This document shows, in pieces, positions 6,097 to 26,974 of a stretch of DNA of 64,000 bases. A model generated the notes under the pieces. That model was given only the letters and a program-made list of their open reading frames with translations. It did no database searches and had not been told where the DNA came from. Made by a program: the position numbers and the translations under genes. Origin of the DNA: a virus (lineage: Duplodnaviria; Caudoviricetes); the IMG/VR virus record IMGVR_UViG_3300026522_000021; one strand, 5' to 3'. Within the stretch, counting starts at the first letter, position 1. Each line of letters starts with the position of its first letter.

Positions 6097-6897
6097 TCAT
6101 TTAATTACCTCGCTATGGTTTTTGATCTTTGAACAAATTTTCTGCAACGCTTCTTTGTTTGACATATAAAATGGATCTTCTCCAAGCATCGCAACGATTG
6201 ACTGACCAAATCTCATCATTGGATATTGGCTATGATAATCCATTAACGCCTGAAGTATATCATCATAATCATCAGCTTCTTTTGTATCACGAGTGTACTT
6301 TGCTTTCGGATCGTAATGATCTACGATGTATTGCAACGTTCTCGGTGCATAATCAATGTACGGATACATGCATCCAACATTATAAATCTCACAAGGAAAT
6401 CCCTGACGATTTAACATAGCGGTTAATCGTCTTTCCATCTCGCTCTCGGCTGAATTGTGCGAATGACCGTGAAGCATTATGGCGTTTCTGTAATGATGGT
6501 TGTAAAACGGCATATAATAATGCGATAAAATTACTCTTTTATTAGCGCCATTTACTTCATCATTGACTTCTTTATACGGTACAACTTCTTCAAATAGCTT
6601 TTTAAAACGGTCATTTACGAACTTATCGTGATTACCAAGAATAAGATGTTTATTGCCATTAAGATTGTTTAATAATTCTTTGTAATAATCTAAATTCTGA
6701 TTATTTACCTTCCAACAAATGTCTCCAAGCACATAGATATGATCCGCATTAGTTACAGCTGCGTTCCATTTTCTTGTTATAGCCTCGTGCATTTCATCTA
6801 AATTTTTGAAACCACGATTATCAAAATCTTTTCCTGCTTTTGTTACATTGATATGCCCTAAGTGCAAATCTGAAATATATAATTTACGTTCTGCCAT
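6097..6897 (-). CDS. Calcineurin-like metallophosphoesterase
   Basis: SDLHLGH, LGD, GNHD, HGHSH motifs. Confidence 0.9.
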   Translation of the reverse strand: MAERKLYISDLHLGHINVTKAGKDFDNRGFKNLDEMHEAITRKWNAAVTNADHIYVLGDICWKVNNQNLDYYKELLNNLNGNKHLILGNHDKFVNDRFKKLFEEVVPYKEVNDEVNGANKRVILSHYYMPFYNHHYRNAIMLHGHSHNSAESEMERRLTAMLNRQGFPCEIYNVGCMYPYIDYAPRTLQYIVDHYDPKAKYTRDTKEADDYDDILQALMDYHSQYPMMRFGQSIVAMLGEDPFYMSNKEALQKICSKIKNHSEVIK

Positions 6898-8063: not shown

Positions 8064-8819
8064 TTATGCTATACGAATTATTTGTTCATACAAGCAAATA
8101 AATTTCCCCATAACTTGTTCATTTCTATGCAGATGCGCGAAGAACCATTTCGTAAATTTTAATCCATCCCATAACAATTCATTGAAATACCATGTCAATT
8201 TATCTCTGTCTGTAAATCCCATGACAGACTGTACTTCTTGAGGCGCACAATGGCTAATCACAAAATCAACTTCATTGTTTACAGCCTTTAAAGATTGTCG
8301 CCCACGTTCCATCTCTTCATCATTCGGCATTTCTTGATCCCACCATGATACGCCCCTGACACGAAACATCTTTCCGTACTTCTGCCATCTCCTATATGTA
8401 TCTCTAAAGTCATCCATGTCTACGAAATCATTAGGGTCTAAAATTCCATCTTGAATATCGTGCGAGCTTGCGCCTCCAAAGGCAAAGAATTTTTTATCGC
8501 ATATATCAAACACGTAACCGCGCATTAAATGATAAATATTATCCCTGATTTTGTGCGCTTTACCACCGTGGAAATCAACAATAGGATACGTGTAAAGCAA
8601 ATCGAAATTCTCATGATTTCCATCAACGAACAGCGTTGTAAACGGTTTATTATTCAGCCAATCAAGCCAATACTTTTCATCTTTTGAGTTAGACCATACC
8701 AGACCAAAGTCACCTAAGATAATAACGAAATCATCACGCGTCATTTCTTTCTGTTCTGGAAAACTATCTACGCTAAATCGGCGTGGATCTCCATGAATGT
8801 CACCTGTGCAATAAATCAT
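8064..8819 (-). CDS. Calcineurin-like metallophosphoesterase
   Basis: GDIHG, GDFG, GNHE, AHLH motifs. Confidence 0.9.
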   Translation of the reverse strand: MIYCTGDIHGDPRRFSVDSFPEQKEMTRDDFVIILGDFGLVWSNSKDEKYWLDWLNNKPFTTLFVDGNHENFDLLYTYPIVDFHGGKAHKIRDNIYHLMRGYVFDICDKKFFAFGGASSHDIQDGILDPNDFVDMDDFRDTYRRWQKYGKMFRVRGVSWWDQEMPNDEEMERGRQSLKAVNNEVDFVISHCAPQEVQSVMGFTDRDKLTWYFNELLWDGLKFTKWFFAHLHRNEQVMGKFICLYEQIIRIA

Positions 8820-9445
8820 TCGTCATACCTCTCTAACTTTTGTTCTTTGGTTTTCAAAATGAAATCCCTGTATTCTTCATAGTCCTTGAACTTGATGTAT
8901 TCACCATTGATTACATCGAAACAATTTTCATTTCTGGCAAATTCATATGCGTTTGCGCTGATAACAAAGTAAATGTCTTTATTCTTTTCTGTTTCTATAA
9001 CCAATGGAATAAGACTTTCTTTTATATCAATCACATTGTCAATACTTAATCCGCTGTCAATAGCATCAAACAAGAACCATAGTTCTTTAGCATCTGGATT
9101 TTCCTGCGACATGCGCCCCATTTTTCTGGCTATATCTTCAAGAACGTTTACAATGTTTTCGCCTTCGCTACTCATCATTGTTCTTGCTACGATATCAAAA
9201 TTTCCCCAAAATGCAGCCTTACTTCTTAACTCTCTCTCGCCGTCATGCATATTGCTATGAAACAGCACAGGAATATCTTTGTTTTTCAAACTTTGATTTA
9301 TTTGATTGAGAAGTGTAGTCTTTCCTGCGCCATTACATCCAACAAGAACAGTTAGCCCTGTATTTATTTTGATTTGCTTCTTCTTAAAGATTGCAAACCC
9401 ATCATCACCATACCAATCATTTGATAATCTGAATTGTCTGCTCAT
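8816..9445 (-). CDS. ABC/AAA-type ATPase
   Basis: Walker A GCNGAGKTT, SSEGE signature-like, FLFDAID Walker B. Confidence 0.8.
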   Translation of the reverse strand: MSRQFRLSNDWYGDDGFAIFKKKQIKINTGLTVLVGCNGAGKTTLLNQINQSLKNKDIPVLFHSNMHDGERELRSKAAFWGNFDIVARTMMSSEGENIVNVLEDIARKMGRMSQENPDAKELWFLFDAIDSGLSIDNVIDIKESLIPLVIETEKNKDIYFVISANAYEFARNENCFDVINGEYIKFKDYEEYRDFILKTKEQKLERYDE

Positions 9446-9897
9446 ACTAACATTCCATCAAGAATACTACTTACAAGTTTACCATCGGCTTTGCCTTTGA
9501 CTTTAGGCATAAGCTCTTTCATAATGATGCCTTTACTTTTCTTTGTTGCTGGATTATCAGAAGTAAAGCCAAGAGACAACATGACATCTTCAATAACGGC
9601 TCTGATCTGTGTTTCATCCATCAATTCAGGAGCAAACTTCTTTAGTGTTTCTATCCTTCTCTTGCATTGCTCGATAATATCCGTCCTATCTTCTGGACAC
9701 ATATCTAATGTTTCCTGCGTCTGACGGATTTCTTTATAAACAACTTCATTCTCTTCATCTTCTGTAAGCTCACGTTGTTTATCAATCTCTGCATTCTTTA
9801 ACGCAGAAAGAAGCAATGAAAGCGTATCTTTTGTTTCTTGATCGCGAGCCTTCATTGCATCAACCATGCACATTCTTACATAATCTTCTTTCTTCAT
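9442..9897 (-). CDS. GatB/YqeY domain protein
   Basis: AMKARD..LKNAEIDK..KGIIMKELMPKVKGKADGK. Confidence 0.85.
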   Translation of the reverse strand: MKKEDYVRMCMVDAMKARDQETKDTLSLLLSALKNAEIDKQRELTEDEENEVVYKEIRQTQETLDMCPEDRTDIIEQCKRRIETLKKFAPELMDETQIRAVIEDVMLSLGFTSDNPATKKSKGIIMKELMPKVKGKADGKLVSSILDGMLV

Positions 9898-9956: not shown

Positions 9957-10640
9957 TTATTCATCTTTCTTTTCAGCTTTTTCCAATTCATCGAGAAGCC
10001 CTTTGAAAGACTCTTCAAGTTCTGCGGACGCTTGCTTTGATACTTCGCCGATAGCTCTCTTATATGCTTCTGTCATTTCGCGGATACGATCTTCGCGCTT
10101 CTTGTTCTCGGCTCGTCTTACTTCCTGTTTGATGGATGCAAGTTTAGCCCTTTCCTCTTTGGCTTTCTTTGCTTCTTCTTCTCTCTTTTTCTTTGTCGCG
10201 TCAAGCTTGCCCAATGCGTACTTGATAATTTTGTTGTAAGCGGACGATCCTGTGCCAATGATATCCATCTCGGAAAGCAGTTTCTTTACAACACAGATCA
10301 GAACACCAACTTCAAGGCTGAATACATCACCATCATTAAGATGCGCAACTTCTTTTGTTCCGTCTGCGAACTCAACGAATACAGTCTTGTCATTTGGATT
10401 AGATACATTAACAATGTCTGGCATGATACACGTACGTCCAATGATACCATTGTCGGCATTCAGATAACCAAGATAAAGATCACCATCTTCTGCAAAAACT
10501 GTACTTCCAACCGTGTTTTCTTCCATGCATTCTCGAAGATATGTAATCGCTTTATCTGGCAATATTAGTTCACCATTTTCATTGTAAAGTCCACATTCAA
10601 CTACTTTTGCTTCAATTCCATCCATAATTGTTTCCTCCAT
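9957..10640 (-). CDS. Hypothetical protein with coiled-coil C-terminus
   Basis: 227-aa ORF; charged helical C-terminus. Confidence 0.6.
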   Translation of the reverse strand: MEETIMDGIEAKVVECGLYNENGELILPDKAITYLRECMEENTVGSTVFAEDGDLYLGYLNADNGIIGRTCIMPDIVNVSNPNDKTVFVEFADGTKEVAHLNDGDVFSLEVGVLICVVKKLLSEMDIIGTGSSAYNKIIKYALGKLDATKKKREEEAKKAKEERAKLASIKQEVRRAENKKREDRIREMTEAYKRAIGEVSKQASAELEESFKGLLDELEKAEKKDE

Positions 10641-10660
10641 GAGTTAATTTATAGTGGCAG

Positions 10661-10741
10661 TGCGGATGAAGGGATTCGAACCCTTACGCCATTTGGCATT
10701 AGTTCCTAAGACTAACGTGGCTGCCGTTACACCACATCCGC
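10661..10741 (-). tRNA. tRNA-Leu(TAG)
   Basis: GCGGATG acceptor stem, CT-TAG-GA loop, long variable arm, GGTTCGAATCC. Confidence 0.9.
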
Positions 10742-10748
10742 AATTTAC

Positions 10749-10839
10749 AAGGCGCATTTGTTGTTTGGTGTCCTTGTCGGACAAATACGATAACCCTAAT
10801 CATCAGCTTGTAAACATTTGAAATTGCTGTATGCGCCTT
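10749..10839 (-). ncRNA. ACAGCAA-motif RNA 1 (terminal-stem type)
   Basis: AAGGCGCAT/ATGCGCCTT stem, ACAGCAA after the 5' strand, internal hairpins. Confidence 0.7.
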
Positions 10840-10884
10840 TCGATATGAGAAAATATTTAAGAATATGTAGAAATAATCTACACA

Positions 10885-10958
10885 TGGAACATACAGGACT
10901 CGAACCTGTAACTTATCGGTTATGAGCCGATTGCTCTGACCAATTGAACTAATGTTCC
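10885..10958 (-). tRNA. tRNA-CAT (probably Ile2, otherwise Met)
   Basis: GGAACAT stem, ATCGG-CTCATAA-CCGAT arm, GGTTCGAGTCC. Confidence 0.88.
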
Positions 10959-10964
10959 AAACAT

Positions 10965-11161
10965 AATCAATATCAATTCGCCTCGTCAATAATTACTCAA
11001 CCGCCGAAACGCTTTTAGTTGGTTTGCGTTGCCATCTTCGTTACTCTGCCATTACTCTTTCAAGTTCATATCCACAGCAGATATTCTTAATTTTCATGGT
11101 TTTCGCTACTTAATCCTTAACATCCTCGCCTCATTACCGGCGATTTGAATTGATATTGATT
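10965..11161. ncRNA. Putative structured RNA closed by a 15-bp perfect stem
   Basis: AATCAATATCAATTC (10965-10979) pairs with GAATTGATATTGATT (11147-11161); ORF-free, inside the tRNA operon. Confidence 0.5.
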
Positions 11162-11368
11162 TGTCCGCATTGACTCGTCCTGTTCTCAGCCCCAACAACC
11201 AGACCACCATCACGCACTATGGGCAGAACCAATCAACCGATATTCTATTACGTTGTTGCGTTCGTAATATATTAGTAAATTCTGGTGCGTCAGTCATCAT
11301 AAGTGAATAAGTATATATCATTTCAACTTATTCCATCCTTGTTTACGGATGCTTTACTTATTTCTGAT

Positions 11369-11449
11369 TGCGATGATTTGGATTCGAACCAATACCTCGC
11401 CCACGTTTCCCATGTCTACAGGCGTATGCTACCTTTTACAACACACCGC
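11369..11449 (-). ncRNA. tRNA-like RNA with expanded anticodon arm
   Basis: GCGGTG/CATCGC acceptor, GGTTCGAATCC T-arm; CGCC/GGCG stem encloses TGTAGA plus a CATG-GGAAA-CGTG hairpin. Confidence 0.6.
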
Positions 11450-11583
11450 TTTTCAGTTATTCCATACCTTTACATCTGTACTATGGTTAGCTACACCATC
11501 GCCACCCTCACACTTTTGTTAATCTTTCCCTTAATGCTATTCTCTGGATAACTTTTCTGAATTATTCGCGATATAATTCATAG

Positions 11584-11665
11584 TGCTTGCGGAGGGAGTC
11601 GAACCCTCAATCCGTCTGGCGTGTGAGCTTAAATCACATGTGTATTCCATTTCCACCACGCAAGC
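11584..11665 (-). tRNA. tRNA-Leu(TAA)
   Basis: GCTTGCG stem, TT-TAA-GC loop, long variable arm, GGTTCGACTCC. Confidence 0.88.
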
Positions 11666-11705
11666 ATGTGTGTAAAGACCCTTACAATAAACTTTACACG
11701 TATTT

Positions 11706-11807
11706 TGTTTAGCGACCTCAAGAAAGTAAACCAAATGACAACATACACACTGAAACACAAAGCACAAATCTATTTATAGGAGGAGATACCACTATGGCGC
11801 TAAAACA
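11706..11807 (-). ncRNA. Putative antisense sRNA complementary to the shared early-gene leader and RBS
   Basis: Terminal stem TGTTTTAGCG/CGCTAAACA; loop contains CAT..CTCCTCCT..TTTGTGCTTTGTGT..GTGTATGTTGT..GTTTACTT. Confidence 0.55.
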
Positions 11808-11824
11808 GGTTTTAGAAATCTTAA

Positions 11825-11952
11825 CAGCGAGGACAGGACTCGAACCTGTAACCTACGGCTTCCTGAATGCGTAACGTTAAAATTGCTGCGCGTATCTAAT
11901 ACAAGATACGTTGTTTGTTTTTACGTTGCTCTGCCAGTTGAGCTACCTCGCT
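11825..11952 (-). ncRNA. ACAGCAA-motif RNA 2 (tRNA-scaffold chimera)
   Basis: AGCGAGG acceptor, canonical D- and T-arms; insert hairpin CGTATCT/AGATACG followed by CGCAGCAA. Confidence 0.8.
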
Positions 11953-12022
11953 GATGTTGTGGATGTGGCAATGGAAAACCAAGGCAAGAACCCACATCCA
12001 CTAATATGAGTGTTCTGAAAAC

Positions 12023-12088
12023 TAAGCGCATATAAAACTTTATCAATGACTGTCAGAAAAAGATTTTATAGTTTGCTGTTCGCGCTTA
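12023..12088 (-). ncRNA. ACAGCAA-motif RNA 3 (terminal-stem type)
   Basis: TAAGCGC-GA-ACAGCAA...GCGCTTA; directly downstream of the DUF2828 gene. Confidence 0.7.
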
Positions 12089-12098
12089 AATCTATGAT

Positions 12099-13598
12099 TT
12101 ACAGTAATCCTTCTACGGCTTCTCTTACTTTCGCGTAGCGTTCTCCATTCAGCGTTTCAAGAAGAACTTTGTAAGGATCAACCTGATTGCTCATGAACAT
12201 CTTCAGGATTTGAACCGAAAATCCACTGCAAAGAATAAGCCCCATATCATTCTGTTGCATCGGGATTGTTCCATTCAAGCGACCGCTTAAATTCCAGAAA
12301 CAAATCTTCGGAAGTTTATATCCTGCGTCCTCGAATTCCTGTGCGATTTCATCAAACAGGCTCTTGTTGAGATTGTGTGAACGACCGTCAAACTGCATGT
12401 CGGAACAAATCACGATCATCTTCGGCATATCTTCCGCAGAAGTATGATTTCTCTTTGCTGTTTTCAGGATCAGCATCATAGTCTTATAGATGTTCGTGTT
12501 TGAACAATCGGATTCGCGCAAGGAAAGATCAACTTTATCTGCAAGCGAATCGCAATTTGACAGATCGACAATCTTCGGATTGGATGAGAAGGTAATAAAC
12601 TTATCTTTCCAATCGCCTGTATTGTGTTCTGACATGTAAATTGCAAGTGCGGTTGCTACATCTAAAGGTGTACCACTTCCTGCAAAACTTCCCCATGTCA
12701 TAGAACCAGAACCATCACGAACAATCAGTGTGTTCTCTACAGACAGATCAGGAAGTGCCTTCCACAGCGCTTCGAGCGTTGCATCTTTTCTGCATCTATT
12801 CTGGCGATACTTCAGGCAGATCTCATGCGGATTAAGCGTGCTTGCGTTAATCTTTGCAGTGCCTTTTTCAAGCGATGCAAGATATTCGCGTCTACGATCC
12901 TCATCATTCCGTAAGAATGCGCTATTGTAGATCAGATTAGCTTTAGAAGGCACAGTTTCATAATTGATCTTATCCCATTTCTTAGCACTCATTTTGACCT
13001 CTACAACATCAAGATACTTTCTAAGTTTGGATAAAGTCTTTCTGTACTTCTTCTCTGTCCATCCAAGTTCACGGCAGATTGTTTTAGCTCTGTCAACTGT
13101 TATCTTGGATGATGCATTGACGCTCGGCATCCACTTCGCACACAGAGAAATCGACTTGCCTTCCTTCATGTTGGCTTTATCTTCTTTCAGCTGCGCCTTG
13201 ATTAAAGCGATTGCCTTTCCTCTCGTTCTTTCATCGTCAAGCATAACCATGACGCTATCCCAACGATTATAGAATGGGATAAGATCAATGATAGCCTTTG
13301 CGATCTTCGGCTGTTTTTCTGCAAGATAGCTCAGTCCAGCTCTGAAAGCTTTTCTCTCACCAAGTCCTTCACGGACATCGCCAAGATAGAAAAGATATTC
13401 AAGCGCTGTCAGCTTATCCTCAAAGAAAACTTTCATGAAATCTTCTTTGATCGCTTCAGGAAATCTGTTACGCATAGCAGATACTCCAAAGTTGAAATCA
13501 AGAAGTTTCTTTCCTGCTGTTGCATAGGCGATCGCGCCGTTTGTGGTTACTGATTTGCGAGTGTTCAATTCATTTTGCATTTCATCGAAGAAACTCAT
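12099..13598 (-). CDS. DUF2828-family TROVE/Ro60-like protein with C-terminal vWA domain
   Basis: TTNGAIAY, DVREGLGER, SLCAKWMPS; MIDAS RDGSGSM; SDMQFD; FWNL. Confidence 0.85.
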   Translation of the reverse strand: MSFFDEMQNELNTRKSVTTNGAIAYATAGKKLLDFNFGVSAMRNRFPEAIKEDFMKVFFEDKLTALEYLFYLGDVREGLGERKAFRAGLSYLAEKQPKIAKAIIDLIPFYNRWDSVMVMLDDERTRGKAIALIKAQLKEDKANMKEGKSISLCAKWMPSVNASSKITVDRAKTICRELGWTEKKYRKTLSKLRKYLDVVEVKMSAKKWDKINYETVPSKANLIYNSAFLRNDEDRRREYLASLEKGTAKINASTLNPHEICLKYRQNRCRKDATLEALWKALPDLSVENTLIVRDGSGSMTWGSFAGSGTPLDVATALAIYMSEHNTGDWKDKFITFSSNPKIVDLSNCDSLADKVDLSLRESDCSNTNIYKTMMLILKTAKRNHTSAEDMPKMIVICSDMQFDGRSHNLNKSLFDEIAQEFEDAGYKLPKICFWNLSGRLNGTIPMQQNDMGLILCSGFSVQILKMFMSNQVDPYKVLLETLNGERYAKVREAVEGLL

Positions 13599-13639
13599 AA
13601 TTGCTTTACCTCTCTTTTCTTAATTTGTGGTTGCAATTC

Positions 13640-13704
13640 AAGGCACTGGTTGTGGTTGTAAGATTAAAAGTCTTATCCATAATAGTGGTTGCTGTATGTG
13701 CCTT
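13640..13704 (-). ncRNA. ACAGCAA-motif RNA 4 displaying a Lys(UUU) anticodon stem-loop
   Basis: AAGGCAC-AT-ACAGCAA...TAAGA-CTTTTAA-TCTTA...GTGCCTT. Confidence 0.8.
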
Positions 13705-13712
13705 AAATGTAT

Positions 13713-13830
13713 AGCGCACGATTGGATTCGAACCAATGACAAATTCTTCTGTGTATTAAGTTGCTGATTGCGATTATCGCTAACCGCGTTTAACAAATTA
13801 AAACTGCACTACCAACTGTGCTACGTGCGC
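13713..13830 (-). ncRNA. ACAGCAA-motif RNA 5 (tRNA-scaffold chimera, no anticodon loop)
   Basis: GCGCACG acceptor, D- and T-arms; insert GCGGTTA-GCGA-TAATCGC-AA-TCAGCAA. Confidence 0.8.
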
Positions 13831-13846
13831 CATCCCTTTCGGGAAA

Positions 13847-14002
13847 CAGCAGTGACAGGAATCGAACCTGTGCTTGCAGCTTGACCAAGTAAACTTGCTG
13901 TGTGTTCCTTTAATTCCCCGACTCTAACTCGTCTATGCGGTTACTCTCGGTGGTAACAAGAAACATTTATATGCTGCCGTGTTCCCACTTCACTACACTG
14001 CC
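13847..14002 (-). ncRNA. ACAGCAA-motif RNA 6 (tRNA-scaffold chimera, large insert)
   Basis: GGCAGTG/CACTGCT acceptor; GCAGC/GCTGC stem encloses a TGTTTCTT/AAGGAACA helix followed by CACAGCAA; GGTTCGATTCC. Confidence 0.8.
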
Positions 14003-14005
14003 GCG

Positions 14006-14130
14006 CCCATCGTGAAGGATTCGAACCTTCCCCTCAAGTTTTGCAGACTTGTAATTGATATATAACTTTGCTGTAGGTGTTTACACTAAACACACAATCA
14101 AAAGATATGCTACCTCTACACCAACGATGG
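14006..14130 (-). ncRNA. ACAGCAA-motif RNA 7 (tRNA chimera retaining a Cys(GCA) anticodon arm)
   Basis: CCATCGT acceptor; insert GTGTTTA-GTG-TAAACAC-CT-ACAGCAA; then CAAGT-CTGCAAA-ACTTG; T-arm. Confidence 0.8.
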
Positions 14131-14148
14131 GATATTCAATTTTTAAAC

Positions 14149-14212
14149 AAGACGCTATGATGGTAATATAAGTTAACAGCTTATTCCTTCATATAATTGC
14201 TGTATGCGTCTT
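14149..14212 (-). ncRNA. ACAGCAA-motif RNA 8 displaying an Asn(GUU) anticodon stem-loop
   Basis: AAGACGC-AT-ACAGCAA...ATAAG-CTGTTAA-CTTAT...GCGTCTT. Confidence 0.8.
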
Positions 14213-14225
14213 TCAGTTTTAACAC

Positions 14226-14315
14226 AAGGCACTTTATTTTGATGGACTTGAACCATCTCGCAAAGACTTTGAATGTTTTTACTTTAACCGATGTTAAGTT
14301 TGCTGTATGTGCCTT
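14226..14315 (-). ncRNA. ACAGCAA-motif RNA 9 (motif stem in place of acceptor stem; D-, anticodon- and T-like arms)
   Basis: AAGGCAC-AT-ACAGCAA, ACTT-AACATCGGTTA-AAGT, AAAAC-ATTCAAA-GTCTT, GATGG-TTCAAGT-CCATC, GTGCCTT. Confidence 0.75.
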
Positions 14316-14336
14316 TCTTGTTATCTTGCAATACCT

Positions 14337-14365
14337 ATTATAGCATATCGTTCTCGGCTTTGCAA
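14337..14365 (-). promoter_or_regulatory. sigmaA promoter driving the ACAGCAA-RNA/DUF2828 operon
   Basis: TTGCAA-17-TATAAT with extended TG; about 20 nt upstream of RNA 9. Confidence 0.8.
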
Positions 14366-14478
14366 GTATTATTTTGAATTATTTTTAATGTAGTTTTGAT
14401 TTCTCGCGATCACTACAAGCGCACAGTTTCTTACTTTTTATGATGTTAGTTTAGAACTGCAAAAGCAACCATTCATCG

Positions 14479-14551
14479 TGCGCCAGATGGGACTCGAACC
14501 CATGACTTTTCGATTAAAAGTCGAATACTCTACCATCTGAGTTACTGGCGC
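14479..14551 (-). tRNA. tRNA-Lys(TTT)
   Basis: GCGCCAG stem, TTCGA-CTTTTAA-TCGAA, GGTTCGAGTCC. Confidence 0.93.
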
Positions 14552-14555
14552 GTAA

Positions 14556-14629
14556 CAGGCGCAGTAGGAATTGAACCCACGCTCACGCAGCTTTGGAGGC
14601 TGGTAGACTTCCAATTATCTTATACGCCT
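14556..14629 (-). tRNA. tRNA-Trp(CCA)
   Basis: AGGCGTA stem, CAGC-CTCCAAA-GCTG, GGTTCAATTCC. Confidence 0.85.
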
Positions 14630-14633
14630 TTAG

Positions 14634-14953
14634 TGGAGTAGAGGGGAATCGAACCCCTGTCCAAAACTACTCTATAAATATCCTTTACGCCGTTTGGGTT
14701 TGTACTGATCTGAATTTACAGATTCAACTCCGTCTGTCCACCACCTGTTTCACCGTCTTGTATAACAGGAACTTCAATCAGACATTACTTCGATCTTCAG
14801 CATTGACCGTCTAAAAGAATTACTGAAGATAGATGTGGCTCACGCCGCCATCCGATTTTCTGTATAATCAGCGTTTATATTTAGGTTTGATGATTAAGTC
14901 ATCACTCTGGCGAGATATTTACTTTGTAACCCTGTCGAAACCTTTACTACCCC
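14634..14953 (-). ncRNA. ssrA: tmRNA; predicted tag (A)ADYTENRMAA* at 14872-14840
   Basis: 5' GGGGTAGTAAAGGTTTCGAC, 3' GACAGGGGTTCGATTCCCCTCTACTCCA with G3.U70; ATAAAC-GCT resume context; tag ends in AA. Confidence 0.92.
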
Positions 14954-14961
14954 ATATATAA

Positions 14962-15032
14962 CAGCGGTTGAGGGTAATGCTCCCCCTTGTTCTGGGTCAA
15001 AGCCAGACGTATTACTTTTATACTAAACCGCT
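14962..15032 (-). tRNA. tRNA-Gln(TTG) with non-canonical T-loop
   Basis: AGCGGTT stem, TCTGG-CTTTGAC-CCAGA, T-loop AGCATTA. Confidence 0.8.
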
Positions 15033-15040
15033 AAAACTTC

Positions 15041-15148
15041 TTGCAAAAACAATCTGGTTATGGTAATATAGTAAATGCCATCATTAGTTTGGTGTGCTTT
15101 GTGTATGTGGTAGGGAGTTGGCTTTGTGCCTTCTCCCTATCTTTGTTT
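15041..15148 (+). ncRNA. Promoter-sRNA-terminator unit antisense to the early-gene leader motif
   Basis: TTGCAA-17-TAATAT (15041-15069, extended TG); core GTGTGCTTTGTGTATGTGG; TAGGGAG..CTCCCTA hairpin plus T-rich tail. Confidence 0.6.
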
Positions 15149-15162
15149 CCTTCGACTCTTAT

Positions 15163-15191
15163 AGTGTACCACATGTGAATATATTCGTCAA
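15163..15191 (-). promoter_or_regulatory. sigmaA promoter for the tRNA/tmRNA cluster
   Basis: TTGACG-17-TACACT with extended TG. Confidence 0.7.
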
Positions 15192-15215
15192 GCATTATTT
15201 TGCATTATTTATAAA

Positions 15216-18703: not shown

Positions 18704-19468
18704 TTACGCAGATGTTAATTCGGCTTCTATTTCATCCTCAAATCTCTGCTCAAGCTCCAATATAGACTTTCCATTCCCTTTCATCGGTTCGCATAATCTG
18801 TATTCAAGACCTTTCAATCTCTTCCAATACTTCGGAAGATACCGATAAATAGATTTTAATTCCTTCAAGTTTTTATTTCGGCAGCACCAACAACTTACTC
18901 GATCTAAACAATCATATAGATCAACCCCACCCTCTTGCCACGCATAACCTTTGCTTCTGCAATATCTCAGGCAGTCTGCTTCGGTCATATTCCATTCGAC
19001 TAAAGGGAGAACCTTTCCTTCATGCTTTGCTTTCTCAAATCGTTGCGGCTCGTCAGCTGCAATTCCAACATAATCAGTCACATCATCATCAATAGTTTTC
19101 TTAAACTTGTCTATTGCTTGTAACTTTCCAGATGTTCCCCATCTACAAGCTCCACCACACCAACTGAAGCCATAATGATAACCTTCTTGTTTTCTATACT
19201 TGACTTCCCTGATTAACATAGAGATCCAGAATGGTTCTTGCGGATGCAGTTCAACGTATTCAATATTTAATTCTTTTAGTTTCGATTTAATTTCATCTCT
19301 TATATGATAGATTGAATCGAATTCCATTCCTGTATCGTAAAATACTACATAGTCAAGCGGATAATTCTTCTCTATCAACATAAGTAACATTGCTAAACTA
19401 TCTTTTCCAAAACTTACACTTGCAATATATTTCACACCGACCACTAACCAGATCGCGGCAATGGTCAA
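18704..19468 (-). CDS. PAPS-reductase-family (PP-loop) protein
   Basis: SVSFGKDS PP-loop, DTGMEF, GIAADE, RVSCWCC. Confidence 0.85.
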   Translation of the reverse strand: MTIAAIWLVVGVKYIASVSFGKDSLAMLLMLIEKNYPLDYVVFYDTGMEFDSIYHIRDEIKSKLKELNIEYVELHPQEPFWISMLIREVKYRKQEGYHYGFSWCGGACRWGTSGKLQAIDKFKKTIDDDVTDYVGIAADEPQRFEKAKHEGKVLPLVEWNMTEADCLRYCRSKGYAWQEGGVDLYDCLDRVSCWCCRNKNLKELKSIYRYLPKYWKRLKGLEYRLCEPMKGNGKSILELEQRFEDEIEAELTSA

Positions 19469-19623
19469 TTATTAAATCCTCCCATGCTAATGGCAATGCC
19501 TTCACGCTGTAACTAATAATTCTACACGCAACTTATCAATCTTTGCGAAACCCGGTCTACCGGGATTGGTGTTACTCCTTTTCTTTATTTTTTAAAATTA
19601 AATTATTTTGCATTATTTATTTC

Positions 19624-20442
19624 CTATTCACCGATATAAACCAACTTGTCTATGTATTCTCTATCTTCTCCTGCAAAAATCGGTATATTATCATCGGCAA
19701 CCCAATCAGAGCCACAGTATTTTACACAACTTCCTCGTTTCATAACGGTAGGATAATCATCCCAATTTACACCTTTTTCTTTGAGTAACATTTCCTTTAT
19801 TTCATTGCAACTCTTATTCTGAAGTTGTTTCTGCGTGAAGCATGATTGCCCAAGCATTTGTATACTATTTCTTATTGCATCAAGCTGTCTCCAATAGAAA
19901 TAATTTGTCACTTCTTCTTTTGTAAGATTAAAACATCTGGAGTCGAACATTGCGCCCCTTATTTTGGCTTTATAATAGACTTCATGTTGCTTCAATATTT
20001 TTCTTTCGTTATCTGATAAACGTCTATTTGTTCCACCTTCATCCCAATCTTCAATATTTTCTCTTCCAAACATATCAATGTTTGCCTCAAAATTTCTATT
20101 GAATATAAGAGTTGCTATAGAAGCTGTTACGCTACATACCTTTTGCACTTCATAGCCAAAGAACGCTTCAGTGTTTAATGATTTATAATCAATCAGCAAC
20201 AAAGAAATCTCATCGGATTGATGATAACCAAGAACGCATCCCTGAATGTTCACGCATAAATACTTCATCGTATCTTGCATAGTTTTTATCAATAAAGAAT
20301 CAAACGGCTTTTCAAAACATCTTGTAAAAGTATGAAATGCTTTTCCGTCAATGCGTATAATAACTGGCATCCTTCTTATTAAAGAGTTTTTTGGAACGCT
20401 CTCATACGTTTTCATCCTCTTTGCCAAATCGCTATTATCCAT
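19624..20442 (-). CDS. Thg1-like tRNA(His) guanylyltransferase / 3'-5' polymerase
   Basis: IRIDGKAFHTFT, YHQSDEISL, FDSR, WRQLDAIRNS. Confidence 0.92.
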   Translation of the reverse strand: MDNSDLAKRMKTYESVPKNSLIRRMPVIIRIDGKAFHTFTRCFEKPFDSLLIKTMQDTMKYLCVNIQGCVLGYHQSDEISLLLIDYKSLNTEAFFGYEVQKVCSVTASIATLIFNRNFEANIDMFGRENIEDWDEGGTNRRLSDNERKILKQHEVYYKAKIRGAMFDSRCFNLTKEEVTNYFYWRQLDAIRNSIQMLGQSCFTQKQLQNKSCNEIKEMLLKEKGVNWDDYPTVMKRGSCVKYCGSDWVADDNIPIFAGEDREYIDKLVYIGE

Positions 20443-21514
20443 TATTTATCCTTTCTTTATCACATAAAACAATCTCACTTCTAATCGGGCATCCTCCCAT
20501 ACACTCTCTTCTTCTTTCGCAATTCGGACACGAATTTCTAAAATGATTTCTGAAATCTTCAAACACTTCACTGTCCCATGCGTTCTGAATAGTATCGTTT
20601 GAAATGTCATACGCCCATTTCATGTCCTGATTGTCAAAGCTGCACGGCAGAGCTTTCATGTCTGATGTAATATACATTGACCATCTACCGCCCTCGCAAG
20701 TGTCAAAACTATCAGGATTGATTTTTGTTGTGAAATTGATTAGTCCGGGAACAGTACAGCTATCAAACCCGATTTTAAAATCATGATCGTAATTTTCTAC
20801 AATATTGAAAAACTTAGAAACTCTGCTATCGTTCACCTGTAAAACATTATCGGATTGACCAAGCCCAACAGGTTTATGAAGAAGGAATATAATCGCATTA
20901 ACGCCCTTTGGAAAATCGTTATCCTCAAGTCTTTGAATTGCTTCGTCAATGGAATTTTTTCCGAGAACATAATGGATGTTTGTCTTTACTCCTTCATCAA
21001 TAAGCATCTTAATTGCTCTAAGTGTATGTGGCTGTCTGTACCAACTGATTGCTACTGCGCCGCAATACTTCCTGCAAAGAGAAACAATCTCGTCATTAAA
21101 TCCTAATCCCGAAGATGTGAAATTAGGAACGATATTATTTTCGCGGCAGTATTGAAGGATCTCTTTGAAGTTTTCATGTTGATCTACATCGCCACGACCG
21201 CCAAGCGCAAGCTGATAACATTTTCCTTTACACTCATCAACAATTCTTTTAAAGTTTTCCAATGTCATGTTTGGATATTTCGTTTCAAGTCCGTTCTGAT
21301 AACACTGAACACCTGACTTGATACATAATCCGCTGCGTCCATGCTTGCAAAATCCCATTACGCCCACATCTATCAGTTCAGGGAATGAACTCATAAACGG
21401 ATCAACGCCTGTATCTTTCCCATGTTCATCAAGAATACCTGACCGCATATAGAACCCTGTATCTGGATTAAACATTGAAATGTATCTGTTCTTCTTGTCG
21501 TATTTGCGAATCAT
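20435..21514 (-). CDS. Radical SAM/SPASM protein with expanded cluster motif
   Basis: CKHGRSGLCIKSGVQCY (CX7CX6C), ALGGRGD, SPASM CEGGR..LPCSF..CPNC..CMGGCP. Confidence 0.88.
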   Translation of the reverse strand: MIRKYDKKNRYISMFNPDTGFYMRSGILDEHGKDTGVDPFMSSFPELIDVGVMGFCKHGRSGLCIKSGVQCYQNGLETKYPNMTLENFKRIVDECKGKCYQLALGGRGDVDQHENFKEILQYCRENNIVPNFTSSGLGFNDEIVSLCRKYCGAVAISWYRQPHTLRAIKMLIDEGVKTNIHYVLGKNSIDEAIQRLEDNDFPKGVNAIIFLLHKPVGLGQSDNVLQVNDSRVSKFFNIVENYDHDFKIGFDSCTVPGLINFTTKINPDSFDTCEGGRWSMYITSDMKALPCSFDNQDMKWAYDISNDTIQNAWDSEVFEDFRNHFRNSCPNCERRRECMGGCPIRSEIVLCDKERINNG

Positions 21515-25405: not shown

Positions 25406-26395
25406 TTATCCGTTGGATACAAAAGGCATCAGCACTTTCTTTAGCGTTGTGACGTTCTGTTCTACAACGCCGTATTCTTCAGCGAGCGACATAATTTTCC
25501 GCGAGTCATCCGAATTTCTAATAGACATAATCAATCTGTCTGTTTCTTCCTTGCCTACAGCGTCAACCATGAAATCATAGAAACCACGCAGATATAGTGT
25601 CCTTGCATTGATGTTGATATCGAGCTTATTCTTTATGTCGCGATTAAACAATCTGCTGATATGCCCAGCCCAATATTCTGGCGGTCTATCATTGAATTCT
25701 TTTTCAAACTTTGCTCTTGTTGGGAACTTGAAATATGATCCGCGATAGCTTAACAACAGATAGCTGCCTCGATGTGCTGGATATTCATCCATGTGATTTA
25801 TCTTAACAAGCAATTCATAAAGCCTATCAGATAATTGGATCTCGCGTCCCTTAACGATTGCTGTTTTCTTTTCGTGATTGATATCATCTTCCTTCAGGTT
25901 AACAATGTCAATGGCTTCAGGAAAACCCTCATAGAACATACGGATAATCGCTTCTTGATAATCCGCGTGCTCTTCTATCTGGTCATTCCTTATTCGCTCG
26001 ATTGCTTCTTCCATCGCATCTTTATCAAAAATTTTTACATCATCAGCGAAAAGCGCAACAACATTTCTTCCTTTAATCTTTTTATCGTTACAAGGATTTT
26101 TGATTACTTCATAATTGTCAATGTACCAGTTAAAGAAATCACGGAGAATTGACAGCAATGTATCATACGTCCTATAAGACATTTTATATACTTTATTGGA
26201 AAATGATTTATTACTAAACGTCTTTATCATCTCGGCAATTTCTTGCGATTCCATGTCAACAAGTGGCTTGCCTATTTCTTTTTCATAAGCGTATAATTCA
26301 GGTCTGTCGATCTGTCCTCGTATCTTCTTCGCCGTTGTTTCAGGTCTTGTAGTAAAATACTCATCCAACAAAGACGCTGTATCTTTCTTTGCCAT
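25406..26395 (-). CDS. Tyrosine-recombinase-fold protein lacking the catalytic set; probable YopR/MrpR-like repressor
   Basis: Integrase N-terminal SAM-like region (LRDFFNWYID..KNP), MFYEG..IVNLKEDDI; no HxxR or catalytic Tyr motif. Confidence 0.6.
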   Translation of the reverse strand: MAKKDTASLLDEYFTTRPETTAKKIRGQIDRPELYAYEKEIGKPLVDMESQEIAEMIKTFSNKSFSNKVYKMSYRTYDTLLSILRDFFNWYIDNYEVIKNPCNDKKIKGRNVVALFADDVKIFDKDAMEEAIERIRNDQIEEHADYQEAIIRMFYEGFPEAIDIVNLKEDDINHEKKTAIVKGREIQLSDRLYELLVKINHMDEYPAHRGSYLLLSYRGSYFKFPTRAKFEKEFNDRPPEYWAGHISRLFNRDIKNKLDININARTLYLRGFYDFMVDAVGKEETDRLIMSIRNSDDSRKIMSLAEEYGVVEQNVTTLKKVLMPFVSNG

Positions 26396-26470
26396 ACACC
26401 TACACCTCCTTACTTAAATATGTACCATAAAACCAAGGAAATGTCAATGTATATAAATATCTTGCGTTAT

Positions 26471-26974
26471 TTAGTAAGCATCAAGAATTGGAAACTGTGA
26501 CTGCATAGCACGGCAGATGCGCATAAGCATATCAACGTCTTTTATCTCGCCCATATAGTATTTTAAATTTTCCTTCTGCACAGTTGTTAACTGCTCTATA
26601 AGTAGTGTACTCGGCGCAGTCAGTCCGTATTTCTTATGATCCCATATCTCCACATGGCAAGGCAGATTTCTTTTGTTCATTTTAGTTGTCAACGGAATAG
26701 CATTTATCACCGTGCTATGCTGATTGTTCTTGTCATTCGAGATAATAAATACTGGTCTATGACCGCCCTGAATACTGCCATCCTGTGACGGAAGATTAGC
26801 CATCCAGATTTCTCCGCATTTAACATCACGACTTTCAGCCCCGATGAATTCAACACTATTATTTTCGTATTTAATGAAGAACGTCATAGGCTGCGCAGAT
26901 TTTCCATCTCGTCTTGCCTGTGTTCTTATTCTTGTTGATGCATTCATCATAAGCCTCCAGTCTCCAGATACCAT
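26471..26974 (-). CDS. PemK/MazF-family endoribonuclease
   Basis: GEIWMANL..GSIQGGHRPVFIISND..N..VINAIPLTT..LLIEQLTTV. Confidence 0.88.
   Translation of the reverse strand: MVSGDWRLMMNASTRIRTQARRDGKSAQPMTFFIKYENNSVEFIGAESRDVKCGEIWMANLPSQDGSIQGGHRPVFIISNDKNNQHSTVINAIPLTTKMNKRNLPCHVEIWDHKKYGLTAPSTLLIEQLTTVQKENLKYYMGEIKDVDMLMRICRAMQSQFPILDAY

Follow-up and report, generated by a model that had tools for sequence, protein, structure and literature searches.

A helix-ACAGCAA family of small RNAs beside Ro60-like DUF2828 genes of bacteriophages: a candidate ribonucleoprotein system

Do the phage proteins annotated as DUF2828 have RNA partners of their own, and if so, what are these RNAs and what might they be used for? 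The question is raised by a stretch of 64,000 nucleotides (hereafter the window, i.e., the whole DNA sequence that was analyzed) from a tailed virus (Duplodnaviria; Caudoviricetes; IMG/VR record IMGVR_UViG_3300026522_000021). The minus strand of the window at 10.6-15.1 kb is a phage transfer RNA (tRNA) region. It includes the gene of a 499-amino-acid DUF2828/DUF7788 protein (12099-13598) and nine elements with a short helix followed by the motif ACAGCAA or a close variant of it. All features described below are on the minus strand unless another strand or genome is given. We consider it likely that the nine elements are small non-coding RNA genes whose products are partners of the adjacent DUF2828 protein, and that together they represent a separate, undescribed branch of ribonucleoproteins of the Ro60/Y-RNA type. 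The RNA family, its structure, its strand-specific association with the gene in both directions of testing, the Ro60-like fold of the protein, and the tRNA-part payloads of the RNAs are supported by comparative genomics and by a predicted structure.

An earlier sequence-only reading of the window listed the nine elements and described each of them as a helix of 7-9 bp, one strand of which is followed by 0-2 nt and then by (A/G/U)CAGCAA. All nine were found at the coordinates that it had listed, and the architecture was borne out in every one. In the 64 kb window, both strands taken together, there are 55 occurrences of the hexamer CAGCAA. At this frequency about 0.9 would be expected by chance on one strand of the approximately 2.1 kb of non-coding DNA in the interval 10749-14315, where nine are seen; one extra CAGCAA inside the DUF2828 gene is not an element. 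A chance origin of the motif is ruled out by these counts.

The elements belong to two classes. Five of them are closed hairpin RNAs, which we call stand-alone elements: a 5' strand of 7 nt is followed by two arbitrary nucleotides, ACAGCAA, a payload, the 3' strand, and a G. The other four are tRNA-like genes with the handle (the helix with its motif) in the region of the anticodon arm. Their inserts of 39-90 nt, located in or beside that arm, contain a local hairpin of 7-8 bp, the 3' strand of which is followed by 1-2 nt and (A/G/U)CAGCAA. In this embedded form a small loop closes the helix, and the entire tRNA body serves as the payload. The two layouts are related by circular permutation of a single design, because in both of them the motif exits from the 3' end of a helix strand into the junction with the payload; at its far end the helix has the RNA termini in the stand-alone form and the small loop in the embedded one.

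We built a covariance model of the stand-alone form, R1, from 85 elements, including the five of the window. A search with R1 at every position of both strands of the window gave exactly the five stand-alone elements (38-46 bits, E from 2e-8 to 2e-6), and the next-best match scored 14 bits. Handle RNA 1 (14226-14315; stem AAGGCAC/GTGCCTT; R1 score 38.1 bits) has a cloverleaf-like payload without an acceptor stem but with a T-arm mimic, GAUGG-UUCAAGU-CCAUC; positions 9-63 of the Rfam tRNA model match it with 23 bits. The payload hairpin of handle RNA 2 (14149-14212; stem AAGACGC/GCGTCTT; 46 bits), UAAG-CUGUUAA-CUUA, is a mimic of the anticodon stem-loop of tRNA-Asn(GUU). Similarly, the hairpin UAAGA-CUUUUAA-UCUUA in handle RNA 6 (13640-13704; stem AAGGCAC/GUGCCUU; 46.1 bits), which ends 41 nt before the start codon of the DUF2828 gene, mimics the anticodon stem-loop of tRNA-Lys(UUU). 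Handle RNA 7 (12023-12088; stem UAAGCGC/GCGCUUA; 42 bits) begins 11 nt past the stop codon of the gene, and the payload of handle RNA 9 (10749-10839; stem AAGGCGC/GCGCCUU; 41 bits) consists of two hairpins.

The Rfam tRNA model (RF00005) matches three of the embedded elements with 46.4-47.4 bits and the fourth with 28.2 bits, the cut-off being 29. In the tRNA-Cys(GCA)-like RNA (14006-14130) the handle hairpin GUGUUUA/UAAACAC-CU-ACAGCAA is placed between the D arm and the anticodon arm; the acceptor, D, anticodon, and T arms are all present, and the anticodon arm CAAGU-CUGCAAA-ACUUG and the T arm align to the tRNA model. In the tRNA-Asp(GUC)-like RNA (13847-14002; 46.4 bits) a handle module of 85-90 nt with the helix and motif TGTTTCTT/AAGGAACA-C-ACAGCAA separates positions 33 and 34 of the anticodon loop, and the anticodon stem GCAGC/GCUGC is intact. 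The tRNA-like RNA at 13713-13830 (47.4 bits, a 56-nt insert) has acceptor, D, and T arms, and its handle hairpin GCGGUUA/UAAUCGC-AA-UCAGCAA largely substitutes for the anticodon arm. Finally, the class-II (Leu-like) tRNA-like RNA at 11825-11952 (46.8 bits) has the hairpin CGUAUCU/AGAUACG-C-GCAGCAA in the region of the anticodon loop. ARAGORN with introns allowed forces all four into "intron-containing tRNAs" with inconsistent insertion points, three of them with implausible arms; its anticodon calls were relied on for Asp(GUC) only. What had been proposed as tRNA-mimic payloads thus appears in the window as parts of tRNAs or as whole tRNA-like bodies.

The consensus obtained from 231 distinct stand-alone elements is WAGRCRC-NN-ACAGCAA ... 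GYGYCUW-G. In other words, the handle is a 7-bp helix, two nucleotides, and a single-stranded ACAGCAA, with an unpaired G after the 3' strand in the stand-alone form. The helices vary with pairing kept, as had been noticed within the window: across the alignment all seven pairs change on both sides, and G-U pairs are tolerated. The copies within one genome have no common interior sequence. The design is kept across phages of Firmicutes, Actinobacteria, and Proteobacteria, the proteins of which are only 33-40% identical.

The payloads were assessed on the same set of elements. A hairpin with a 7-nt loop of the form YU-NNN-R-N, as in anticodon or T loops, was found in 89 of the 231 stand-alone payloads, compared with 16.5 +/- 3.5 after shuffling. 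The commonest loops are CUUUUAA (the loop of tRNA-Lys UUU), CUUGAAA, CUGUUAA (Asn GUU), and the T loops UUCGAAU and UUCAAAU. The reverse-complement control gave 74 anticodon-like loops versus 89, but it is uninformative because hairpins and A/U-rich loops read alike on both strands; weight was placed only on the shuffle control and on the identity of the loops.

To assess the association between the handle and the protein we used 82 loci (80 from IMG/VR and two from GenBank phages) with homologues of 38-65% identity, the gene being oriented as plus. These loci were retrieved with an alignment query; a single-sequence query found none. According to a strict rule (7 bp, at most one G-U pair, exactly 3 nt from the end of the strand to CAGCAA), the gene strand has 246 stand-alone and 46 hairpin-type elements, whereas the opposite strand has 15 and 6. 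At distances of up to 500 nt from the gene, 117 elements are situated upstream and 50 downstream. R1 gave 198 matches at E <= 0.01 in these loci, all of them on the gene strand and none on the opposite one. A T-loop motif follows within 130 nt downstream in 34 of the 46 hairpin-type elements, and therefore the tRNA-embedded form is recurrent.

In the reverse test IMG/VR was scanned for the 14-base handle pattern AAGACACNNACAGCAA. The retrieved piece included the gene, always on the same strand, for 14 of the 35 matches with a closing strand, and 12 of 14 further contigs encode the protein elsewhere; in total, the protein is encoded by 26 of 28 handle-bearing contigs. Chance-looking matches within coding sequence sat on contigs without the gene. 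Additionally, R1 was applied to phage genomes. All five genomes with DUF2828 (phages of Enterococcus, Bacillus, Mycobacterium, Escherichia, and Listeria) have matches, and only beside the gene. R1 found no matches in the genomes of T4, T5, PG7, and Chazly21, which have tRNA arrays and no DUF2828, or in the genome of Bxz1, which has a true TROVE protein and no DUF2828. The Pfam TROVE model (PF05731) has no match in four DUF2828 phage genomes and does detect the Ro protein of Bxz1. The sequence-only reading had suggested a covariance model as a check of co-occurrence and had named a lack of enrichment near DUF2828 genes as a possible refutation. The handle turned out to be associated with DUF2828 in both directions and on the gene strand, and the motif is enriched, with at least one gene-strand element in 79 of the 82 loci.

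The protein itself is matched by the Pfam families DUF7788 (1.7e-41) and DUF2828 (3.4e-36) and weakly by VWA_2; in PHROGs it is assigned to phrog_850, "RNA-binding protein". An AlphaFold model made from 117 homologues has a predicted local distance difference test score (pLDDT) of 95.1 and a predicted template modelling score (pTM) of 0.93. It consists of a predicted Ro60-like ring of helical repeats and a von Willebrand factor A (vWA) domain with a metal ion-dependent adhesion site (MIDAS). The MIDAS residues D295-x-S297-x-S299, T368, and D400 are invariant in the 117 homologues. A Foldseek search against the PDB gave Ro60/TROVE structures as all of its top 13 matches (Xenopus, human, Deinococcus Rsr, and Thermus phage phiLo). 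VIA-align superimposed the model on Xenopus Ro60 (1yvr) with Z 19.1 and a root-mean-square deviation of 3.8 A over 412 of the 499 residues, compared with Z of at most 11.3 for structures that match by the vWA domain only. A comparison of a predicted structure with Ro60 had been advised on the basis of the sequence, and it shows likeness over both domains. According to the model, the DUF2828/DUF7788 protein is Ro60-like along its whole length, and its sequence identity to the solved Ro60 proteins is 10-15%. The family is large: it includes 6,504 clusters at 50% identity and 711 deposited phage records, and DUF2828 proteins were also found in eukaryotes by a protein atlas search. Metagenomic relatives of the window protein are up to 84% identical to it. 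Public annotations of some homologues already read "Ro-like RNA binding protein".

What could such a particle do? A Ro60 protein takes up Y RNA on the outer surface of its ring and ends of single-stranded RNA in the central hole. The ring binds the conserved stem of Y RNAs, and other proteins are recruited by the remainder of the RNA (Chen et al. 2014, PMC4201824). By analogy, the ring of the DUF2828 protein would bind the helix with ACAGCAA, and the variable payloads would be presented to tRNA-recognizing proteins as baits or adaptors. The likeliest targets would be host tRNA-cleaving defense nucleases, with the particle as a decoy or inhibitor, or enzymes of tRNA repair or decay, with the particle as a scaffold. 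In either case the particle is probably used in the fight between phage and host over tRNAs. We propose this conflict because of the genomic context, the choice of Lys(UUU) and Asn(GUU) loops, and the counter-defense phenotype of the protein gp130 of coliphage Bas63. The context includes tRNA arrays, a Thg1-like enzyme, phosphoesterases, and a P-loop ATPase in the window, as well as RtcB in Listeria phage LP-064. Loops of the Lys(UUU) and Asn(GUU) types are classic targets of anticodon nucleases. Bas63 gp130 is Ro60-like, is encoded upstream of tRNA genes, and counters the ppl defense system (PMC11482910, preprint).

Transcription data are available for a relative. In Listeria phage CKA15 (P100-like) the gene of the Rsr-like protein CKA15_055 has three non-coding regions with very high transcription in the 2 kb upstream of it; the protein was detected in virions, and the authors proposed neighboring Y RNAs (PMC12282133). 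In the locus of phage LP-064, which is near-identical to that of CKA15, three R1 elements are located directly upstream of the gene. According to the mapping from LP-064, the three Listeria handle RNAs lie between the gene and a ROOL-like RNA (LP-064 L196 1965-2516; 87.4 bits, cut-off 99.1).

A number of observations weigh against the proposed ribonucleoprotein or limit what can be claimed for it. The most transcribed region of CKA15 (26,236-26,727) maps onto this ROOL-like RNA, which is not named for it in PMC12282133, and any correspondence of the transcribed regions to handle RNAs is tentative. The count of covarying pairs is circular, since perfect pairing was the criterion by which the elements had been picked; evidence independent of it is provided by strand asymmetry, position, and co-occurrence. 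The protein has no match to the Pfam TROVE model (PF05731) at E <= 0.1, and comparisons of sequence with solved structures gave nothing or marginal matches, a profile search against PDB sequences reaching Ro60 only at E 0.027 and only for the vWA part; the homology to Ro60 therefore rests on the predicted structure. In the reverse test 5 of 10 contigs of the "no closing strand" control group also have the gene; four of these five carry real elements that the filter missed, so that the control was flawed. The genome of Vibrio phage KVP40 encodes a DUF2828 protein and gives no R1 matches. The assignment of Bas63 gp130 to the DUF2828 homologues is made from synteny within the genus, as in HY02. 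For the phage of the window we infer both the expression of the RNAs and their physical binding to the protein, and the role of a decoy or scaffold is speculation.

The position of the elements within tRNA arrays suggests another explanation, namely that the handle modules are processing signals or introns. The tRNA-like genes would then lose their inserts and the halves would be rejoined, e.g., by RtcB, into working tRNAs; the stand-alone copies would be punctuation of a polycistronic tRNA transcript, and DUF2828 would be either a processing factor or a mere neighbor. An exact removal of the insert from 13847-14002 does give a canonical tRNA-Asp(GUC), and the same operation on 14006-14130 gives a tRNA-Cys(GCA)-like sequence. 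RtcB is encoded 1.3 kb from the gene in LP-064, but it was not found among the open reading frames (ORFs) of the window that were examined. The insertion sites, however, vary over the four genes (the interval between the D and anticodon arms, positions 33/34, replacement of the anticodon arm), and an Rfam scan of the elements matched no group I intron or other ribozyme or intron family. Moreover, stand-alone copies, which have nothing to splice, outnumber embedded ones by 246 to 46. The signal is missing from tRNA-rich phages without DUF2828 and thus is not a general punctuation of tRNA operons. We regard this explanation as unlikely.

Since the commonest position of the elements is directly upstream of the gene (the 117 copies within 500 nt), and some of them abut the ribosome-binding site, they might instead be cis-regulatory leaders or autoregulatory operators of the DUF2828 gene rather than free-standing partner RNAs. 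KVP40 also points in this direction: in the leader of its gene (L202 3420-3512, minus strand) ACAGCAA follows the 5-bp strand GACAT, and the partner strand ATGTC includes the start codon, so that autoregulation is possible there, judging by the sequence. This explanation, which we consider very unlikely, does not account for the nine copies in the window, three of which are downstream of the gene beyond tRNA genes, for the four complete tRNA-like bodies, for copies tens of kb from the gene in other genomes, or for copies preceded by a promoter of their own. The multiplicity of copies per genome, with their 7-bp inverted ends, variable interiors, and occasional location within tRNA genes, is also what one would see for small mobile or repeat DNA with terminal inverted repeats that accumulates in tRNA arrays and has no role as RNA. 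We give hardly any credence to this origin. The elements are strictly co-oriented with the gene (198 versus 0 by R1, 246 versus 15 by the strict rule), and the tolerance of G-U pairs is sensible only for RNA. The single-stranded ACAGCAA is asymmetric, being confined to one end; copies within a genome lack a common interior sequence, and the design is conserved over phages of three bacterial groups with proteins of 33-40% identity. Partner RNAs of the DUF2828 protein remain the preferred explanation, and autoregulation through the same handle may exist alongside it, as in KVP40 and where elements abut the ribosome-binding site.

The surroundings of the array are as follows. A site resembling a sigma-A-type promoter (14337-14365; TTGCAA-17-TATAAT with a TG-extended -10) is located approximately 20 nt upstream of the first handle RNA. 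It had been named as the one promoter of the locus, and it is the best such site in 10500-15200 (10/12 match plus TG); no terminator-like site was found on the minus strand of this interval. It is plausible from the sequence that this single promoter serves all nine elements as one operon. A cluster of tRNAs and transfer-messenger RNA (tmRNA) upstream of the promoter-like site is on the same strand as the elements. In Bacillus phage Tsamsa an analogous promoter stands immediately before the first element. The upstream cluster (14478-15033) includes ordinary genes of tRNA-Lys(UUU), tRNA-Trp, tmRNA, and tRNA-Gln(UUG). The phage-encoded tmRNA (14633-14953; 92 bits), directly upstream of the cluster of handle RNAs, has the tag ADYTENRMAA. 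The downstream handle RNAs are interleaved with ordinary genes of tRNA-Leu(UAA) (11583-11665), tRNA-Met (10884-10959), and tRNA-Leu(UAG) (10660-10741). One more tRNA-like sequence, at 11368-11492, has a 7-bp acceptor stem, the T arm UGG-UUCGAAU-CCA, and an insert of approximately 50 nt; it has no CAGCAA motif and is called neither by ARAGORN nor by the Rfam tRNA model.

Just downstream of the array are genes of a metallophosphoesterase (8064-8819), a P-loop ATPase (8816-9445), and a YqeY-like protein (9442-9897), possibly a context of RNA end healing or otherwise related to tRNA. A phosphoesterase of phrog_547 is encoded at 6097-6897, a few kb from the DUF2828 gene; in Enterococcus phage VRE9_2 it is 0.7 kb away (L001 6217-6759). 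Mycobacterium phage LeBron has a metallophosphoesterase upstream, and a phosphoesterase may be a recurrent neighbor of DUF2828. A run of genes of the tRNA-modification or repair type at 18704-21514, 5-7 kb from the array, encodes a PAPS (3'-phosphoadenosine 5'-phosphosulfate)-reductase-like ATP-pyrophosphatase, a Thg1-like enzyme, and a SPASM-domain (radical-SAM-type) protein. The Thg1-like enzyme (19624-20442) belongs to the tRNA-His guanylyltransferase family, of the type that repairs tRNA 5' ends; it is mentioned as context and its membership in the system is not implied. Two genes lie farther away on the plus strand. A 927-amino-acid ORF (53136-55919) matches the eukaryotic-type RNA-dependent RNA polymerase family PF05183 with E 2e-7; we take it for a two-barrel RNA polymerase like YonO of SPbeta and its counterparts in crAss-like phages. 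The gene of a beta-CASP/RMMBL ribonuclease (60364-61806; RNase J / CPSF type) adjoins a second small tRNA cluster (Tyr, Ser, Thr; 59034-60321), also on the plus strand.

Among the 711 deposited phages with the protein are therapeutic and biocontrol ones that infect Listeria, Staphylococcus, Enterococcus, Salmonella, and E. coli. The genes of the family are annotated only as "RNA-binding protein" or DUF2828, and the partner RNAs are overlooked or wrongly called as small ORFs or odd tRNAs. A defined handle makes it possible to annotate the partner RNAs, to test directly the role of the particle in the phage-host conflict over tRNAs, and to ask whether the host nucleases that a phage encounters can be predicted from its payloads. 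In a wider sense, the biology of Ro60 and Y RNAs is extended to a second branch of proteins with a different RNA code.

The system of the window resembles Ro60/Rsr with Y RNAs (metazoan Y RNAs, Deinococcus Yrn1, bacterial and mycobacteriophage YrlA/YrlB; RF02553; PMC4201824) in several respects. In both, the gene of a ring-plus-vWA protein stands beside small RNAs of the same strand; the RNAs combine a conserved stem-associated motif with a variable, often tRNA-like module; and the genes are set in a context of tRNA damage and repair. The motifs differ, being helix-NN-ACAGCAA in the phage system and GGUCCGA or GNCGAA in Y RNAs. Unlike in Ro60/Y RNA systems, the number of partner RNAs in a genome with the phage system reaches nine or more, and its payloads are often an anticodon stem-loop or a T arm alone. 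The phage tRNA-like forms have open acceptor ends and the handle in the anticodon region, which is the reverse of YrlA. A comparison with the Rfam YrlA model (RF02553), which the sequence-only reading had advised, gave a best score in the window of 20.5 bits against a cut-off of 69 for a match that spans two adjacent tRNA-like elements, and the motif of the phage RNAs is ACAGCAA, not the GNCGAA(N)G that YrlA has near its 5' end. Since the protein does not match the TROVE model and the RNAs match neither the YrlA model nor its motif, we consider the phage system a parallel variant of Ro60/Y RNA and not a member of it. In LeBron three handle RNAs follow a DUF2828-type gene (L194 4453-4704). Within the middle one, TGGACTC-TA-GCAGCAA ... 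GAGTCCA-G, there is a permuted tRNA module resembling YrlA (RF02553, 39.8 bits); by its sequence this RNA appears to link the YrlA design with the ACAGCAA handle.

Among phage proteins, CKA15_055, Bas63 gp130, the "Ro-like RNA binding protein" of cluster-L mycobacteriophages, and PHROG 850 belong to the same family as the window protein and share its neighborhood of tRNA genes. The idea that phage proteins are Ro-like and may have neighboring Y RNAs has already been voiced for CKA15 (PMC12282133) and for Bas63, whose neighboring "tRNA genes" were proposed to be possible Y RNAs (PMC11482910). These two papers contain no RNA motif or family, handle, covariation, permuted tRNA-embedded form, or tRNA-part payloads; we regard the RNA handle as undescribed. 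In the sequence-only reading no described Y-like RNA family for DUF2828 was known; correspondingly, no Rfam 15 model matches, no paper describing such a family was found, and our literature search found none in which DUF2828 is named in connection with phages or RNA. Thermus phage phiLo also encodes a protein with the Ro60 fold (PDB 9L5Y; PMC12135203; Z 15.1 against the window model). It represents the canonical TROVE branch, since the 9L5Y chain was deposited under the name TROVE domain-containing protein, and, unlike in the window system, ACAGCAA RNAs are not reported for it.

The handle also resembles a group of eukaryotic RNAs, the Class I RNAs of Dictyostelium and other dictyostelid social amoebae, for which the published search pattern is GTTGRCCTTACAGCAA ... 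GTCAACTG (RF01414; Aspegren 2004; Mosig 2006, PMC5054030; Kjellin 2021, PMC7919456). This pattern reads as 7 nt, UU, and ACAGCAA, compared with 7 nt, NN, and ACAGCAA in phages. Class I RNAs are likewise approximately 60 nt long and encoded by many genes per genome, with a short stem that unites the 5' end with the 3' end and is conserved in structure rather than in sequence, a variable interior, and a G near the 3' end. The phage consensus of 231 elements agrees with this design in its terminal stem, its 5' motif ending in ACAGCAA, its variable interior, and its length of approximately 60 nt. Class I RNAs, unlike the phage RNAs, start with AAG and end with CUGU, and the Rfam model RF01414 has no match at E <= 10 in 13620-14340 (721 nt) or 13632-13712 (81 nt). 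They were described as restricted to Dictyostelia, and the protein known to bind them is Rnp1A, which has an RNA recognition motif (RRM). Going by the sequences, we speak of a resemblance and not of membership. A bolder proposal, which we put forward only tentatively and rather doubt, is that helix-ACAGCAA RNAs and DUF2828 form one ancient ribonucleoprotein, parallel to Ro60 and Y RNAs and present in phages, giant viruses, bacteria, and eukaryotes. The phage particle would then be a modular display in which interchangeable payloads made of tRNA pieces bait or block host anticodon nucleases and other tRNA-directed defenses, and the abundant Class I RNAs would be eukaryotic members with DUF2828 as their missing partner. 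In this respect DUF2828 is a concrete candidate and a testable hypothesis; if it is true, the function of Class I RNAs, unexplained for about twenty years, gains a protein partner.

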